Positions 1-6,236 of a stretch of 42,287 nucleotides of DNA are shown here, piece after piece. This DNA is from Calditrichota bacterium. GTDB taxonomy: Bacteria; Calditrichota; Calditrichia; JAJRVZ01. Made by a program: the position numbers and the translations under genes. The DNA lies in assembly GCA_024277055.1 (NCBI GenBank), contig JAJRVZ010000047.1, forward strand, positions 1 through 42,287. Direction: 5' to 3'. The first letter of the stretch is position 1. Each line of letters starts with the position of its first letter. The notes below the pieces were generated by a model. It was not told the DNA's origin. It did no database searches and worked only from the letters and a program-made list of their open reading frames with translations.

Positions 1-1651
1 CCAGTTCCCGTATATTTCCCGGCCAAGAATATTTGCAGAGTTGCTGCATCACTTCATCTGAAATTGCGTTTATGGAGCGGTTGTGAATTTTGTTGAATTT
101 TTCAATAAAATGACGGCACAGGTATTCTATATCGCCGGCCCGCTCGCGCAACGCGGGTAAGTGAATATGTACGGTATTCAATCGATAGAACAGATCCGGT
201 CGAAATTTGCCTTCCTTGATCAGAGCATCCATTTTCCGGTTTGTGGCCGCCAGGATTCGAACATTCACGGAAATGGGATTTGGATTCCCCAGGCGCATTA
301 TTTCCCGTTCCTGCAATACCCGCAACAGTTTTACCTGAATGATGCCGGGTATATCGCCGACTTCGTCCAGAAACAGCGTCCCCCCGCTTGCCAGTTCGAT
401 TAAGCCCTTCTTTTTCACGGCCGCACCGGTGAACGCCCCCTTTTCGTAACCGAACAATTCTCCTTCGAGAAGCGTTTCCGGAATGGCGCTGCAATTTACG
501 GCAATAAAAGGCCCTTCGGCGCGGCGTGAATGCTCATGAATCGCCCGTGCTACCAGTTCTTTACCCGTACCCGTTTCCCCGGTAATCAGAACGCTGATAT
601 CGGTCGGGGCAACTCTGCGGGTCAATTCAAATATTTTTTGCATCACCCTGTCCCGGGCAATCATACCGCTGAACCTGAAACGCTCGGCGGAATACAGCCA
701 ATGGTAAAATCCGGCGACCAGTTGTTCAATATCTTTATATCTGCTTTGCAGGTACGAGCGTCTTCTTGACAAATTCAATTTGATGATACTGTTGATACTT
801 TCAACAGACTGGAAAAAGATATTGGGAAATTTGGCTGACGCGTATTGCGCTTTTACGTTTTCAGTCTGGAAAACAAGGTACAGGTTTTCTCTGTAATTTT
901 TCGCAACCTGCACAATATTCTGAATAATTCCATCATCATCATTTTGTGTGTTTATGATAAGCGCCGGCCTGGAAAGAATGTTTTCCAGTTGTGACAATTC
1001 GACAGGAATCAGACTATGTTTTACGGCAATATCATAGGCCTGTGAAAACTTGGAACTCAGCAATTGTGCCGGCTGATGTATTATTGATTTAAAATAACCG
1101 GCGAAACTTAAAACGGTATTTTTATCATGACCGATCAGAATCAGCTGGTGTCCGCTGATATCATCAACTATTTTGCAGGCAATATCCTTTATGGCATCGC
1201 CGGCATTTATGCCGTATTTTTTCATTTCATCACTCTGCAGAACCTGTTCCGTAAAATCGATCGCCAGGCGGTAGAGCTGGGTAAGAACCGGCCCGGAAAG
1301 TTCGAGATCGAGTGAGAGATTAAACGCTTCCTTGTACTGTGTAAGTTTTGCGGGGTCTGCCGCGACAGGATCATGAACTCCCATCATGATTTCAAAAAAG
1401 CGTTTTGCGGCTTCCTGCTGGTGTAATACTGTCGGGTTGGTTACCGAACGATTGAAAACTTCCGCACAGACTGACCGGAGAAAAGGAACCGTTTCGGTTC
1501 CGAAAATAAATATATCATATCTGCCGTTTGAGTTCAGTACAAGACATTCTTCGACACAATGTTCTTCCATTACCGGTTGGATTTTTTCCAGTATATCCGC
1601 TCCGACAGGATTTTTATTACTGTCCGCTATTTCAAAATGTGATAAATACAT
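1..1651 (-). CDS. Sigma54-dependent enhancer-binding protein with an N-terminal degenerate glutamyl-tRNA reductase (HemA)-like domain; 3' end runs off the window
   Basis: Hand translation from ATG 1651 gives 550 sense codons with no stop. Residues ~327-550 carry Walker A GETGTGKE, AVNCSAI, ELFGYEKGAFTGA, Walker B LFLDEV, LLRVLQE, RILAATN, FRPDLFYRL and YSWPGNIREL. Residues 1-321 follow HemA motif order: EECLVLNSNGRYDIF, EAAKRFFEIMMGVHDPVAADPAKLTQYKEAF, SGPVLTQLYRLA, IACKIVDDISGHQLILIG, FPNIFFQSVESINSIIKLNLSRR, LVAGFYHWLYS. The HTH would lie beyond the window. Confidence 0.9.
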   Translation of the reverse strand, partial: MYLSHFEIADSNKNPVGADILEKIQPVMEEHCVEECLVLNSNGRYDIFIFGTETVPFLRSVCAEVFNRSVTNPTVLHQQEAAKRFFEIMMGVHDPVAADPAKLTQYKEAFNLSLDLELSGPVLTQLYRLAIDFTEQVLQSDEMKKYGINAGDAIKDIACKIVDDISGHQLILIGHDKNTVLSFAGYFKSIIHQPAQLLSSKFSQAYDIAVKHSLIPVELSQLENILSRPALIINTQNDDDGIIQNIVQVAKNYRENLYLVFQTENVKAQYASAKFPNIFFQSVESINSIIKLNLSRRRSYLQSRYKDIEQLVAGFYHWLYSAERFRFSGMIARDRVMQKIFELTRRVAPTDISVLITGETGTGKELVARAIHEHSRRAEGPFIAVNCSAIPETLLEGELFGYEKGAFTGAAVKKKGLIELASGGTLFLDEVGDIPGIIQVKLLRVLQEREIMRLGNPNPISVNVRILAATNRKMDALIKEGKFRPDLFYRLNTVHIHLPALRERAGDIEYLCRHFIEKFNKIHNRSINAISDEVMQQLCKYSWPGNIREL

Positions 1652-1654
1652 GGT

Positions 1655-2470
1655 TTAATGAAATGAATGTAATTTCGAAAAATAATTGTTAATTACCAGC
1701 ATGGAAAAAATAATCCAGCTGTAGCCGATGATAGAAAAATAGGCCAAACGGTTTCCGGGCCAGTTCAGTTTCTTTTTCCCCAGAAGTGCAAGACCGAAAA
1801 TGAGCCAGGAAATCAGCACGGCGATTAATTTGGGGTCCCAGGACCAATAGGTGCCCCAGGCCGTTTTTCCTGTAATCGCTCCAAGCACAATTCCAAAACT
1901 GTTGAACACAAATCCAAGCGCCAGGCTCAGATGGATTTTTTTTTCAAGAAATGATAGAGAAGGAAGCCGCTCATAAAAATATCCCAGATGCGTGCTTTTT
2001 ATTTCATGAAAAAGAAGCACATACATTAACCCGGATAAAAATGAAAGTGAAAAGGCTGCATACGCCAGCAGATTGAAAATTACATGTACTTCAAAATACA
2101 GGTTTTTTAAAATTTCCGGTGTTGGTGCGGAAACTTCAATAAACAGCATTGCGATTGAATGCAGAATAAAAATAATGCCGGCATGAAAAACGCCCAGAGC
2201 ATAGGACCGTTCTTTAACTATCACTATCCTGTTTAAAACAGCAAAAAACCAGATAAATGTTGTAATTGCCTGAAATGGATCATTCAGCGGTAAATGGCCC
2301 TTTTCCACGCTGAGCATTACCAGAAAAACCGTATGCAAAATTAACCCGAAGACGAAACTTAATCTGGCCGGCCGTAATTCCTTTTCATTTTGAGACTTGA
2401 AATACTTAAAATAAAAATATGCTGAAATAGCATAGGAAACGGGACCGAGAACTCTTAAGAAAACTATCAT
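1655..2470 (-). CDS. CcsA/HemX-family (cytochrome c assembly, heme-handling) membrane protein
   Basis: 271 aa with about 8 hydrophobic segments. Has the Trp-rich WWD motif WGTYWSWDPK, His residues in GLILHT, FEVHV and the C-terminal LHSF, and the RLPSLSFLEK loop. Upstream of a HemA-like gene; no CcsB/ResB partner in the window. Confidence 0.88.
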   Translation of the reverse strand: MIVFLRVLGPVSYAISAYFYFKYFKSQNEKELRPARLSFVFGLILHTVFLVMLSVEKGHLPLNDPFQAITTFIWFFAVLNRIVIVKERSYALGVFHAGIIFILHSIAMLFIEVSAPTPEILKNLYFEVHVIFNLLAYAAFSLSFLSGLMYVLLFHEIKSTHLGYFYERLPSLSFLEKKIHLSLALGFVFNSFGIVLGAITGKTAWGTYWSWDPKLIAVLISWLIFGLALLGKKKLNWPGNRLAYFSIIGYSWIIFSMLVINNYFSKLHSFH

Positions 2471-2476
2471 TTTAAA

Positions 2477-2518
2477 TGTTTCAGTTTGGAATCATACATT
2501 TTGTTTCAAAATTAAACA
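2477..2518. promoter_or_regulatory. Pair of palindromic operator-like sites (TGTTTCA-N3-TGAAACA) between the putative promoter and the ccsA/hemX-like start codon
   Basis: 2477-2493 is TGTTTCA-GTT-TGGAATC (11/14 consensus positions) and 2502-2518 is TGTTTCA-AAA-TTAAACA (13/14). The same motif recurs at 2778-2814. Confidence 0.6.
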
Positions 2519-2548
2519 AGTATAATACAAAAAAGCCATGTAATGCAA
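2519..2548 (-). promoter_or_regulatory. Putative sigma70-type promoter for the ccsA/hemX-like and bEBP genes
   Basis: Minus strand reads TTGCAT (2548-2543), 18-nt spacer, TATACT (2524-2519). It lies just downstream of the terminator at 2566-2592, so the two genes probably need a promoter here. Confidence 0.4.
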
Positions 2549-2565
2549 GATAAAAAACTATCTAC

Positions 2566-2592
2566 AAAAACCCCCGGTATGTAAACCGGGGG
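2566..2592 (-). terminator. Rho-independent terminator
   Basis: Minus strand reads CCCCCGGT-TTACAT-ACCGGGGG followed by TTTTTG: an 8-bp GC-rich stem plus U-tract. Confidence 0.8.
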
Positions 2593-2655
2593 CTGATCAG
2601 CAAACAACAGGTATTGTTGTTTAGGGAGGAACTGTTGTGGGATAACATTAATAGG
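2566..2655 (-). ncRNA. Candidate sigma54-dependent small RNA (~90 nt) or terminated leader RNA
   Basis: Bounded by a -24/-12-like element (predicted +1 near 2655) and the terminator. Contains the C-rich stretch UUCCUCCCU, a perfect 8-bp hairpin AAACAACA-AUACC-UGUUGUUU (2602-2622) and the terminator hairpin. No RNA family recognised. Confidence 0.5.
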
Positions 2656-2665
2656 GATTTAATAC

Positions 2666-2681
2666 TACAAAATGAATGCCA
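2666..2681 (-). promoter_or_regulatory. Sigma54 (-24/-12)-like promoter
   Basis: Minus strand TGGCATTCATTTTGTA versus consensus TGGCACNNNNNTTGCW. Spacing is exact and the -24 GG is intact, but the -12 element is GT instead of GC. Adjacent to a sigma54 activator gene. Confidence 0.55.
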
Positions 2682-2777
2682 AAAATATATGTGCTTATGC
2701 GTATTGTACAAACTGTTAATTTTTAAGGGATTATCAATCAATACCACTTTTGAGGTTTCGCAGATTACCGGGTTCTT

Positions 2778-2814
2778 GATTTCAATCTGAAACACCGGGT
2801 TTATATTTGAAACA
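2778..2814. promoter_or_regulatory. Tandem palindromic upstream activator sequence candidates
   Basis: 2778-2794 is GATTTCA-ATC-TGAAACA and 2798-2814 is GGTTTAT-ATT-TGAAACA, repeated at 20 bp. They sit about 120-160 bp upstream of the predicted sigma54 start site. Confidence 0.6.
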
Positions 2815-2835
2815 AGAATACGGAGAATGATTTGT

Positions 2836-4290
2836 TCAGGGGGATAATAATCTCAGCAAAATGGAATTAACAATTTTAGGATTGGCCTTTCCTGCGGATT
2901 TACGCATTACCTGTCCCACGAAAAAACCTATTAACCCGGTTTTTCCGTTTTTGTATGCGTTCACTTCATCGGGATACTCAGCCAGTACTTCTTTTACCAT
3001 GGATTCTATGGCGGAGTCGTCCGAAACCTGAATAAGCCCCATTTCCTTCACGATTACATCTGCCGACTTATCGGAAGTCAGCAAAACATCAAACACCTTT
3101 TTTGCGGCACTGCTGCTTATTTTTCCTTCACGGATCAGTTTCAACAATTCCGCAAATCGTATTTCGGAAATGGGAAATTCTTTAATTTCAATTTTCTTAT
3201 CGTTCAATACCCGCAGTACATCACCGAGAACCCAGTTGCTCACCAGTTTTGCGTCATTGATAATTTTTACGGTTTGTTCATAATAATCCGCCAGTTCTCT
3301 TGAGGAAGTGAGAATTTCCGCATCATATTCCGGTAAACCGTATTGATCCATAAACCGTTGACGACGGACTGCCGGCAATTCCGGTAGCATCTTTTTCAAT
3401 TGCCGTACATAATCCTCTGCAATCTCCAGACGAACGAGATCGGGATCGGGAAAATAGCGATAATCGTGAGCCTCTTCTTTCACCCGCATAATCTGTGCAG
3501 TACCGGATGACGGATCCCACAAAAGTGTGGCCTGTTCAACCGTCCGACCGGATTCCAGCAGTGAAACCTGACGCTGGATTTCGTAGGTCAGTGCATTTTC
3601 TACATTGCGCAGAGAATTCATATTTTTAAGCTCTGTTTTCGTCCCCAGTTCCGTTTCGCCCTTTCTTCGCACCGAAACATTTGCATCGCAGCGCAGGCTG
3701 CCCTGTTCCATGTTTCCATCACATATCCGGAGGTAACGAACCAGTTGGCGGATTAAAGACAAATAGGCGTGGGCCTGTTGCGGCGTTCGCAAATCCGGCT
3801 CCGTGACGATTTCAATTAACGGCGTACCGCAACGATTTAAGTCCACCAGCGAACTTCCCGCGTCTACAAAATCTTCATCGTGCACACTCTTTCCGGCATC
3901 TTCTTCAAGGTGGATGCGATTAATGCGGATAGTGTGCTTTTCACCATCTGTTTCAACCTCAACCCGGCCGTTTTTACAGATGGGATGTTCAAATTGAGAT
4001 ATTTGGTAGCCTTTGGGCAAATCCGGATAGAAATAATTTTTCCTGGCAAAAACATTATGTTCGGATATGGTGCAATTGGTGGCAAGACCCATTTTTATTG
4101 CGAATTCCACCGCCTTTTCATTTAAAACCGGGAGAACGCCGGGCATTCCCAGGCAAACGGGACAGGTCTGTGAATTCGGTTCCGCGCCGAATCGTGCGCT
4201 GCAGCCGCAAAATATCTTGGTAATGGTGCTGAGCTGGGCATGAACTTCGAGCCCGATCACCGCTTCATATTTATCTTCTGAAATAGTCAT
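2836..4290 (-). CDS. gatB: Asp-tRNA(Asn)/Glu-tRNA(Gln) amidotransferase subunit B
   Basis: [54 protein letters not shown] and C-terminal [13 protein letters not shown]. Confidence 0.98.
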
Positions 4291-4293
4291 TGA

Positions 4294-5715
4294 TCACTTA
4301 AAATTTTTCTCTACAAAATCCGCTACCCGAAACAATTTTCCTTCCTCAAACGCATTCGCCATGAATTGCACACCGATGGGCAGACCGGAGGCATCCATAC
4401 CAACAGGAACATTTATTCCGCAGATGCCGGCGAGGTTGGCGGAAACCGTAAATATATCGGAAAGGTACATTTCGAGGGGATCACTGATTTTTTCCCCCAT
4501 GGCAAATGCCGTAGCCGGTGTAGTCGGGGTTAGAATCGTATCAACTTTTCCGAAAGCTTCATCGAATTCTTTTTTGATCAAATGCCTTACCTGCAGGGCT
4601 TTTTTATAATAGGCATCGTAATATCCCGAGGAGAGCACATAGGTTCCGAGCATGATACGGCGACGGACTTCTTCTCCGAAACCGTTTTGCCGGGTACTCC
4701 GGTACATTCCGGCCAGCGTTTCCTGCCGATCATCCCGGTAACCGTACCGTACGCCGTCAAATCGGGCCAGGTTGGAACTGGCCTCGGCCGTTGCGATGAT
4801 ATAGTAAGCGGCGATGCCGAATTCAAGTGTTTTTTCCAGTGAAATTTCAACGATTTCCGCCCCGCTTGCTTGCAGGTAATCGGTAAGTTTTTGCAGTCGG
4901 TCGCCGATCTCTGGCTGGATACCTTTTTCGAGCACCGCCCTGTTTACACCGATGCGTATTCCCCTGATATCACGATTGATGAACGAATGAAAATCCGGAA
5001 CAGGTTCACGACTCGATGTGGAATCCCTTTCATCATGGCCGGAAATTACCCCCAGGATTAACGCTGCATCATCCACGGTTCCGGTCAGTGGGCCGATCTG
5101 GTCCAGTGAAGAGGCAAAAGCGACCAGTCCGAAACGTGAAACCCGGCCGTACGTCGGCTTCAAACCGACGACACCGCTGAATGCAGCCGGTTGTCGAATC
5201 GAACCGCCCGTATCACTTCCCAGTGCGGCCTGTGCCATACCCGCCGCCACTGCAACAGCCGAACCGCCGCTCGACCCGCCCGGTACCCTGGATTCATCAA
5301 CAGAGTTTTTAACATTGCCGAAATATGAGTTTTCATTGGAAGAACCCATGGCAAATTCGTCCATATTGGTTTTACCGATAAAAACCGCTCCGGCATCCGT
5401 CAACTTTCTAATAACAGTGGCATCAAACGGTGAATTAAAGTTTTCGAGGATTCTTGAAGCGCACGATGTTCTGACACCGGCAATATTGATATTGTCCTTA
5501 ATGGCGAATATGGTGCCGGCGAGCGGCCCCGGGTCGGCTCCTCTGGAAATCTCTTCGTCAATCCAGCCTGCTCGTTGCATCGCCCGTTCATTCAGTAAAG
5601 TAATGAAAGCGTTGAGATGTGAATATTCATCACATTTTTTCTGAAAGGATTGAAGGGATTCCGCGGCCGAAAGCTTACCCCTTTTAATTTCCCGAACGTA
5701 TTCACGAAGAGTCAT
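4294..5715 (-). CDS. gatA: Asp-tRNA(Asn)/Glu-tRNA(Gln) amidotransferase subunit A
   Basis: Amidase signature: [73 protein letters not shown]. Confidence 0.98.
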
Positions 5716-5954
5716 TCAGGCTTTTTTTCCTTCATTTCTTCACCGGATTCGGCCGATTCGTTGTTTTGCACTTTCGGTTTTGATTGATCTGTGGTATTCA
5801 CGTTGAATTCATCCTGTATTTCACTGGTTGCCTTTTTGAATTCACGAATACCTTTTCCCAATCCCTGGGCCAGTTCAGGCAGTTTTTTGGCACCAAAGAT
5901 CAGCAGGATAATGAACATAATGATGATCAATTCGGTTGGGCCGATACCAAACAT
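5712..5954 (-). CDS. tatA: Twin-arginine translocase subunit TatA/E
   Basis: [38 protein letters not shown]. Overlaps the gatA start by 4 nt. Confidence 0.95.
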
Positions 5955-5972
5955 AGTATACCACCTTTCAAT

Positions 5973-6236
5973 TTAATCTATCCACCGTAGAGCATATGCG
6001 GCAATCAGAATGCCGATTATGCCTGTAATATTCAGTTTTATCGAAAATCCCAACGTAAGCGTCAGGATGATAATATTCAATGTACCCGGTCCGATACTGG
6101 CGGTAGCGGATTTCAAAAAGAAATCCTTGACCACGCCCGCCGGAACCAGGAAAGCAATAACTTCACCAAGGGCGCTTCCTATCATGGCCCCGACAAATAT
6201 TATAAATATAATGAATCCGAGACTTTTTCTGCGCAT
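5973..6236 (-). CDS. Small membrane protein, DUF4321-like
   Basis: 87 aa, hydrophobic. Pattern GAMIGSALGEVI...TLNIIILTLTLGFSIKLNITGIIG; tightly packed in the operon. Confidence 0.75.
   Translation of the reverse strand: MRRKSLGFIIFIIFVGAMIGSALGEVIAFLVPAGVVKDFFLKSATASIGPGTLNIIILTLTLGFSIKLNITGIIGILIAAYALRWID

Follow-up and report, generated by a model that had tools for sequence, protein, structure and literature searches.

A candidate heme-homeostasis module in Calditrichota that pairs a HemX-like membrane protein with a sigma54 activator bearing a dead glutamyl-tRNA reductase domain

What does a glutamyl-tRNA reductase that has lost its catalytic features do when it is fused to a sigma54 activator and encoded next to a HemX-like membrane protein? 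This question is raised by contig JAJRVZ010000047.1 of a Calditrichota bacterium (assembly GCA_024277055.1), of which the whole stretch analysed here, positions 1 to 42,287, is called the window. The minus strand of the window reads, in order, gatA, gatB, a 365-nt spacer, the membrane gene, a gap of 3 nt and the activator gene; the last two genes are called the module below. Our answer is that the window probably carries a heme-homeostasis switch, a HemX-like protein beside a sigma54 activator, or bacterial enhancer-binding protein (bEBP), whose sensor is a dead glutamyl-tRNA reductase (GluTR, HemA). The two genes and their domains are as follows.

2-1651, minus strand: a bEBP with a pseudo-GluTR N-domain; 550 aa of the protein lie on the contig
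677-1651, minus strand: GluTR(HemA)-like N-domain, aa 1-325, the presumed sensor, from profile matches
161-661, minus strand: AAA+ sigma54-interaction domain, aa 331-497, with the GAFTGA loop (Pfam Sigma54_activat, PF00158, E 4.7e-70)
1655-2470, minus strand: HemX/CcsA-like membrane protein, 271 aa long, which presumably partners the N-domain (Pfam Cytochrom_C_asm, PF01578, E 1e-26)

The AAA+ domain of the activator contains EKGAFTGA in the translation, and rpoN is present in the genome (contig C378, E 5.3e-60). The N-terminal part gave a Pfam GlutR_N match at aa 26-137 with an E-value of 1.2e-5 and 25.6 bits, below the 27-bit cut-off, and NCBIfam holds no specific model for the activator. A profile made from the N-domains of ten family members matched the GluTRs of M. 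kandleri (1GPJ, E 3.5e-26) and Arabidopsis (4N7R, E 2e-12), and also the true HemA open reading frames (ORFs) of the phylum (423-467 aa, E 1e-28 to 1e-41). The catalytic Cys, which lies in TCNR of this genome's true HemA, is absent in all ten fused proteins, and the window protein reads NSNGR. The NADPH motif GxGxxA is degenerate (GAGETA in the true enzyme, GHDKNT in the window protein), and the AAA+ domain stands in place of the GluTR dimerisation domain, after the helix around Arg297. As judged from these residues, the N-domain is a pseudo-enzyme, a GluTR homologue without the catalytic features, and not a GluTR. Only M1, F85, K160 and I161 are invariant in an alignment of 15 N-domains. Full-length relatives of the activator have called lengths of 614-666 aa and a Fis-type helix-turn-helix at their end, which was seen in the nine full-length relatives aligned. 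The contig starts inside the gene and the window copy has no C-terminal DNA-binding part; the missing end was sought at other contig ends and not found. Members of the family are publicly named 'AAA family ATPase' or 'sigma 54-interacting transcriptional regulator', from metagenome-assembled genomes labelled Calditrichota or candidate division KSB1. The whole genome (G000) has 34 places that match the activator, about 30 of them via the sigma54 AAA+ domain, unusually many sigma54 activators for a 4-Mb genome.

The membrane protein scored 124.5 bits with the CcsB model, against a cut-off of 187.6 bits, so that it is not a typical CcsB. Three histidines are conserved: of 36 module and canonical homologues, 35 keep His46 and all 36 keep His129 and His268. 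The window protein also carries the motif WGTYWSWDPK. In the alignment of the module membrane proteins, WGxxWxWD is intact only in the window's family. The other families and the canonical hemA-adjacent proteins keep only the Asp and Lys of this motif (with the Pro as well in module proteins) and the three His.

We followed the module through 86 genomes, a set that was identical in searches at the phylum and the class level. The fused activator was found in 26 of these genomes and has the membrane gene directly upstream in 18, so the objection raised in an earlier sequence-only reading of this DNA, that homologous activators might usually lack a ccsA/hemX neighbour, does not hold. Among the best 150 matches in a library of 1.84 billion representatives, only about 20 were of the fused length and the rest were ordinary GluTRs of 410-460 aa, indicating that the activator family is small; a search of two public contig collections (metagenome_contigs and genome_contigs) with the N-domain confirmed no close relatives in either. 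With regard to the true enzyme, a ccsA/hemX-like gene lies directly upstream of hemA in all 22 of the relatives' hemA loci, and in this genome a ccsA-like gene precedes hemA on contig C16 (tblastn match). The membrane proteins of the module (13) and the canonical ones (23) were separated with 100/100 support, and in a quick tree with many long branches the 39 true GluTRs and all 23 fused N-domains fell on opposite sides of a 99% branch. Thus, the membrane gene and the activator both appear to be derived from the ccsA-like-hemA pair at the front of the phylum's operon for heme synthesis. The data fit one old duplication of this pair that was turned into a regulator, in an unrooted and undated tree. 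The adjacency, the split of the membrane proteins and the Cys-less GluTR homologue make the duplication of a hemX-hemA pair into a signalling module, as it had been proposed, a fair reading.

Do the two proteins touch each other? A complex of the membrane protein (13-row alignment) and aa 1-325 of the activator (15-row alignment) was predicted with our own alignments, and gave ipSAE values of 0.62, 0.62 and 0.63, whereas the best of three controls scored 0.00. At least 88% of the contacts recur between the runs, and the pLDDT of the partner is 78 or more. In calibration, 58 of 80 solved complexes came up to the mark, as did 2 of 110 mismatched pairs, which is only a rough guide for predictions made, like ours, with own alignments. 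On the membrane protein, the predicted interface consists of loop 153-174 and residues 236-241; on the N-domain, it takes in residues 157-163, 254-255 and 272-292. The loop of the membrane protein is conserved, and the tightest predicted pairs are at K160/I161. The model supports a contact of the membrane protein with the pseudo-GluTR domain, which the sequence-only reading had suggested. The presence of K160/I161 in true GluTRs as well would agree with an interface taken over from a canonical HemX-GluTR pair.

If the module is a switch, what would it switch? The spacer ahead of the membrane gene holds the following elements, next to the housekeeping neighbour.

2780-2812, no strand: distal enhancer (upstream activating sequence) pair, 111 nt before the -24 element
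2666-2681, minus strand: -24/-12 sigma54-type promoter, TGGCATTCATTTTGTA, a pattern match
2564-2656, minus strand: candidate sigma54-dependent transcript of 93 nt, its start at about 2656 inferred from the promoter
2566-2594, minus strand: intrinsic terminator, a 10-bp hairpin and UUUUU, from RNA folds
2479-2516, no strand: proximal palindrome pair, a candidate operator, with one-mismatch TTTCA-N3-TGAAA sites at 2504-2516 and 2479-2491
2836-4290, minus strand: gatB, a housekeeping neighbour outside the system, with gatA upstream in reading order

The distal pair consists of TTTCAAATATAAA (2800-2812, two mismatches) and TTTCAGATTGAAA (2780-2792, perfect), which are 20 nt apart. The proximal sites are 25 nt apart and lie 8-45 nt ahead of the start of the membrane gene, and a site pair is found at the matching position before the membrane gene in the family relatives. 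All the features that the sequence-only reading had listed on the minus strand are in place except for a "second promoter" before the membrane gene, since a simple consensus scan found no sigma70-type promoter there. The same scan did not list the main terminator, probably because an A-U/G-U extension of the stem consumes two of the five U. Transcripts of gatB may also end at this terminator.

The enhancer and promoter belong to a cassette that is shared across the phylum: a pair of TTTCA-N3-TGAAA palindromes 19-22 bp apart, placed 88-147 bp before the -24 element. The geometry holds throughout 19 distinct cassettes, which fill 20 rows as one locus has two promoter rows. The exact paired pattern occurs in 12 of the 86 genomes, all 12 with the activator, and in none of the 60 activator-less genomes; the reversed pattern, as a control, gave no matches. 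The pattern is consistent in four of the eight families sampled. Thus, the elements noticed in a single spacer form a cassette that is conserved and goes together with the activator throughout the phylum. Comparative sequence makes the palindrome pair of the cassette the likely DNA site of the activator.

Which genes stand behind the cassette? In the family relatives, the -24/-12 element lies in the same spacer but is directed away from the module, toward a TonB-dependent receptor of 694-708 aa and a HmuY-family protein, in which Pfam recognises Plug and barrel domains and the HmuY family, respectively. In other families, the cassette is found beyond the activator gene, directed at a receptor, at a receptor with HmuY, or at a small ORF with a receptor. 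A TonB receptor and HmuY adjoin the module in eight loci, and a TonB receptor alone in four more. In two genomes without the membrane-gene neighbour, the cassette stands before receptor operons elsewhere. HmuY of P. gingivalis hands heme to HmuR (PMC8911585), and the target operons of the relatives likewise encode a TonB-dependent receptor and a HmuY-family protein; the operon of this phylum differs in having a sigma54 promoter and the enhancer of the module. In several cassette operons, an ORF of 158-162 aa precedes the TonB receptor (L065:5028-5516; L066:4671-5159, minus strand; L063:8094-8570). The one in L065 matched no Pfam family, and these ORFs may encode a hemophore-like partner in place of HmuY.

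The other target is heme synthesis itself. The cassette is found upstream of ccsA-like-hemA in 5 of 23 true-hemA loci, exactly those from activator genomes, and in none of the 18 others. Two further hem operons with the cassette are present in G034 and G026, and in three genomes of another genus, called g16 here, perfect pairs lie no farther than about 1.3 kb from the hemA match; one of the three (G029) has a weaker -24/-12-like site 244 nt downstream of the pair. This genome (3.96-Mb assembly) contains 33 perfect palindromes, but a second site together with a -24/-12 element less than 300 nt away was found for only two: the window cassette and one on contig C16 before ccsA-like, hemA, hemC, hemD, hemE and a HemN-like radical-SAM gene; the content of this hem operon was confirmed by Pfam and NCBIfam, and its first ORF starts 31 nt after the promoter 16-mer. 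Enhancer and promoter are separated by 111 nt in the window, by 113 nt in the genome's own hem operon, and by 112, 112 and 107 nt at the hmuR promoters of relatives. The window promoter has a score of 7 of 8 and TGGCATTCATTTTGTA is nearly equal to the hmuR promoter of relative L038, TGGCATAACATTTGTA. Compared in this way, the window cassette corresponds to the hmuR cassette of the relatives, although it is directed toward the module and only the 93-nt unit comes after it. A HmuY match was absent from this genome (the assembly is 88.8% complete), and receptors found elsewhere in it are only 25-28% identical. The five family relatives searched for hemA all have hmuR-hmuY beside the module, and none of them exceeds the hemA-family cut-off. 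The main conserved outputs of the activator appear to be operons of heme uptake (TonB receptor and HmuY) and of heme biosynthesis, neither of which the sequence-only reading had foreseen when it took a small RNA (sRNA) as the output.

Several observations on these loci stand by themselves. In these five family relatives (G001, G004, G006, G007 and G009), the best hemA-family hits are the fused activators themselves, and these may be heme auxotrophs that keep the pseudo-GluTR regulator. Frameshifts or stop codons break up the fused activator in G004 (L042), G005 (L043) and G074 (L064), and in G004 the membrane gene as well; the receptor genes beside the interrupted activators look intact, and decay or assembly error is possible. 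Behind the activators of G020 and G022 (L048:6949-10132 and L049:6923-10106) there are ORFs of 702 and 331 aa that match neither Pfam nor NCBIfam and have no enhancer pair beside them; contig C2 of this genome carries a relative of the 702-aa ORF with 26% identity. In the window, the proximal (2477-2517) and distal (2777-2815) palindrome pairs are mutual repeats of 17-18 nt with 88-89% identity, which flank the segment of promoter, unit and terminator. An old inversion, or even a flip-flop segment, between these repeats is conceivable, as the promoter of the relatives has the opposite direction. No recombinase gene was seen near the repeats.

What, then, is the 93-nt unit that takes the place of the uptake operon? 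Its fold comprises an open 5' part, an 8-bp hairpin and the G+C-rich 10-bp hairpin with U5, with a minimum free energy of -28.0 kcal/mol (z = -4.23; none of 200 shuffles was as stable), and the open part is C/U-rich and includes UUCCUCCCU. A coding reading was rejected: a 77-aa ORF across the spacer has no homologue, and a 28-aa ORF within the unit has its stop codon past the U-tract of the terminator. An Rfam scan of positions 1-6000 (E up to 1) gave only anti-hemB of Burkholderia at 2563-2640 on the minus strand, which, for all its suggestive name, we took as chance (19.3 bits against a gathering score of 49.5, E 0.5). No copies of the unit were found elsewhere in the genome or in the relatives' loci beyond the promoter and enhancer motifs. 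A comparable arrangement is seen in three genomes of g16 (G029, G037 and G073), in which a cassette followed by a terminated unit of 80-130 nt lies between the activator and a hybrid histidine kinase.

g16 units: L060:4640-4942, minus strand; L061:3903-4180; L062:7361-7637; each unit lies ahead of the kinase, which is 974-981 aa

Each g16 unit ends in a 42-nt hairpin with a T-tract that is unique in its genome. The hairpin region is identical at 46 of 50 positions between species (92%), compared with 74-76% in the coding flanks and 37-66% in other parts of the spacer. In G019, the fourth g16 species examined, the same flanking genes enclose a small ORF, a TonB receptor and a 241-aa ORF at that place.

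Small RNAs that depend on sigma54 and are encoded beside their activator are known in Qrr with LuxO, GlmY with GlrR and CrcZ with CbrB. The window resembles them in having enhancer sites, a -24/-12 element, a structured terminated unit of about 90 nt and an adjacent activator gene. On the other hand, the window unit, known from sequence alone, has no homologues or known target and sits where relatives have a protein-coding operon. The unit is probably a real sigma54-dependent short transcript, as its promoter, fold and terminator suggest, while an action in trans as an sRNA is possible but somewhat doubtful. Of the sRNA as it was originally proposed, the promoter, the enhancer sites and a terminator about 90 nt downstream held up and a homologue or Rfam family was not found, so that the RNA stays a candidate.

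Putting these parts together, we propose the following mechanism. When heme is scarce, the activator would be free, bind the palindromes and open the sigma54 promoters, so that more heme would be made or taken up. With enough heme, the membrane protein in its heme-loaded form would contact the pseudo-GluTR domain via its conserved cytoplasmic loop, and this contact would silence or destabilise the activator, as HemX acts on the real GluTR. The proximal site pair, which overlaps the start region of the operon, may give autorepression. The 93-nt unit, if functional, would be a third output induced in heme shortage.

Various points weigh against this proposal and against the unit as one of its outputs. 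That heme is the signal, and in which direction the module responds to it, is concluded only from the content of genes, and no conserved Cys or His was found in the N-domain alignments, so that direct heme ligation by the N-domain is not indicated. The window activator is cut before its DNA-binding end, and binding to the palindromes therefore rests on the relatives. Eight of the 26 activators have no adjacent membrane gene (L047 and L052-L058); in each of the five genomes tested among them, one canonical HemX-like gene is present elsewhere. In the phylum, 22 of the 23 true GluTRs share K160/I161 of the predicted interface, and these residues could equally be structural. The related genomes are not independent, and co-occurrence counts overstate the link. 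The -12 element of the window promoter reads TTGT where the textbook has TTGC. With regard to the unit, no homologue was found in Rfam, this genome, the relatives' loci or the two public contig collections, a look for sequencing runs that contain this DNA listed none, and the window and g16 units are unrelated in sequence. Target prediction by RNAduplex gave no robust target: the start of the hemN-like gene ranked 2 of 3305 with a 58-nt seed and 86 of 3334 with the 36-nt open part, strong Shine-Dalgarno sites dominated the top ranks, and we name no target. Finally, both unit-bearing lineages have the unit exactly where relatives carry the receptor operon, which a scar would also explain.

Such a scar is the subject of one rival explanation, in which hmuR-hmuY was lost and left behind the enhancer, the promoter, a short leader and a shielding terminator, the 93-nt product having no function of its own. 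The relatives do carry hmuR-hmuY at this promoter, the HmuY match is absent from this genome, g16 shows the same replacement between the same flanking genes, the units of the two lineages show no sequence conservation between them, and target prediction yielded no robust candidate. But the spacer contains no remnant of the receptor gene (best tblastn E 0.11), and the loss is accordingly not recent; nevertheless the perfect palindrome, the promoter score and the family's exact spacing of 111 nt were retained. Moreover, no hairpin like the window terminator stands behind the relatives' hmuY, nor one like the g16 hairpin behind the G019 operon, and the g16 cassette and hairpin were kept in three species with the hairpin better conserved than coding DNA. 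We regard an orphan cassette as unlikely, though worth keeping in mind. A reading as leader is very unlikely in our view. It holds that the sigma54 promoter drives the operon of membrane gene and activator in positive autoregulation, with the unit as a 5' leader that is read through conditionally. It gains from the order of cassette, ccsA-like gene and hemA in the genome's own hem operon, with the first ORF so close to the promoter, which the window repeats, and from the missing sigma70-type promoter. The fold of the full 216-nt leader, however, keeps the terminator and shows no competing anti-terminator, the strong hairpin with its U-tract stands 100 nt ahead of the gene, an activator dependent only on its own product could not start, and in the family relatives the promoter points away from the operon.

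The signal may also be another one than heme. In this case the same heme genes would be controlled, but the pseudo-GluTR would sense a porphyrin intermediate, glutamyl-tRNA, NADPH or redox, and the membrane gene would be merely co-regulated. The activators without a membrane-gene neighbour would suit this, and the fold that binds substrate and NADPH is retained, as judged from sequence profiles; the substrate- and NADPH-binding residues of the true enzyme are lost, however, the membrane proteins of the module form a clade of their own whose predicted complex passes the controls, and the five family relatives keep the module without any hemA match above the cut-off. We consider a signal of this kind quite unlikely. 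As for chance, the motifs in 2471-2835 might be random matches in an A+T-rich spacer. TGGCATTCATTTTGTA is the sole match to TGGCAY-N5-TTGYW in the window, where 0.23 were expected, but 21 of 100 shuffles gave at least one match to this loose pattern, and palindromes with at most one mismatch are common (10 found, 3.9 expected). The combination, on the other hand, is rare among the perfect palindromes of the genome, its spacing equals that of the orthologous cassettes, and the link with the activator is phylum-wide, so that random matches are hardly credible as an explanation. The heme switch of a HemX-like protein and a pseudo-GluTR activator is the reading that we carry further.

How does the proposed switch relate to known systems? 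Several sigma54 activators are silenced by a partner protein or have enzyme-related sensor domains, for example PspF with PspA, NifA with NifL, and DhaR with DhaK/DhaL. The module is like them in having an AAA+ sigma54 activator set by protein contact, here a predicted one, and upstream palindromes about 100 bp from the -24/-12 element, and it differs in its GluTR-derived sensor domain and its CcsA/HemX-type membrane partner. We did not find a GluTR-derived sensor of a sigma54 activator with a CcsA/HemX-type partner in the published literature. A comparison of sigma54 regulons from 2025 (PMC12316311) has no occurrence of heme, hemA or porphyrin.

HemX of B. subtilis and S. aureus acts on the GluTR (GtrR/HemA) that is encoded adjacent to it in response to heme (PMC5801465; PMC10991733). 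The 2018 paper describes the mechanism of HemX as unknown and reports no interacting partner identified by then (PMC5801465), and the way in which HemX lowers GluTR, open since 1994, is still called undiscovered in a 2024 review (PMC10991733). A solved complex of this kind is not known to us. The likeness to our module is a PF01578-type membrane protein by a GluTR-type protein, and the size of 271 aa and the conserved His fit as well. In contrast, the partner here is catalytically dead and fused to a sigma54 activator, the predicted output is transcription and not enzyme abundance, and the membrane gene is first in order. The two-component systems HrrSA/ChrSA and HssRS couple the heme level to transcription of genes for heme synthesis or handling (PMC10991733), but they work at sigma70 promoters, whereas the module has no kinase or receiver, and their place is taken by a pseudo-enzyme sensor and a membrane partner. 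Thus, the module works like a partner-controlled sigma54 activator and like HemX-GluTR, at least on our model, and is a member of neither as defined. Going one step further, it is an attractive but rather unlikely idea that HemX-family proteins in general act by direct contact, with their conserved cytoplasmic loop (153-174 here) set on the strand that bears the conserved Lys-Ile where the GluTR NADPH domain begins, that this phylum copied the pair to a sigma54 switch for heme synthesis and uptake with a decoy of the regulated enzyme as sensor, and that sigma54 promoters freed by the loss of receptor operons were twice, independently, given over to small heme-status RNAs.

Finally, the module offers a natural, co-evolving pair of HemX-like and GluTR-like proteins with a predicted interface and a transcriptional read-out, so that contact and heme dependence should be testable by a reporter. 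It would add a pseudo-enzyme sensor to the known controls of sigma54 activators, and it shows a possible reuse of an uptake-operon promoter for a short RNA. For a poorly studied phylum, the module and its cassettes would define a compact and predictable heme regulon that covers both synthesis and uptake.

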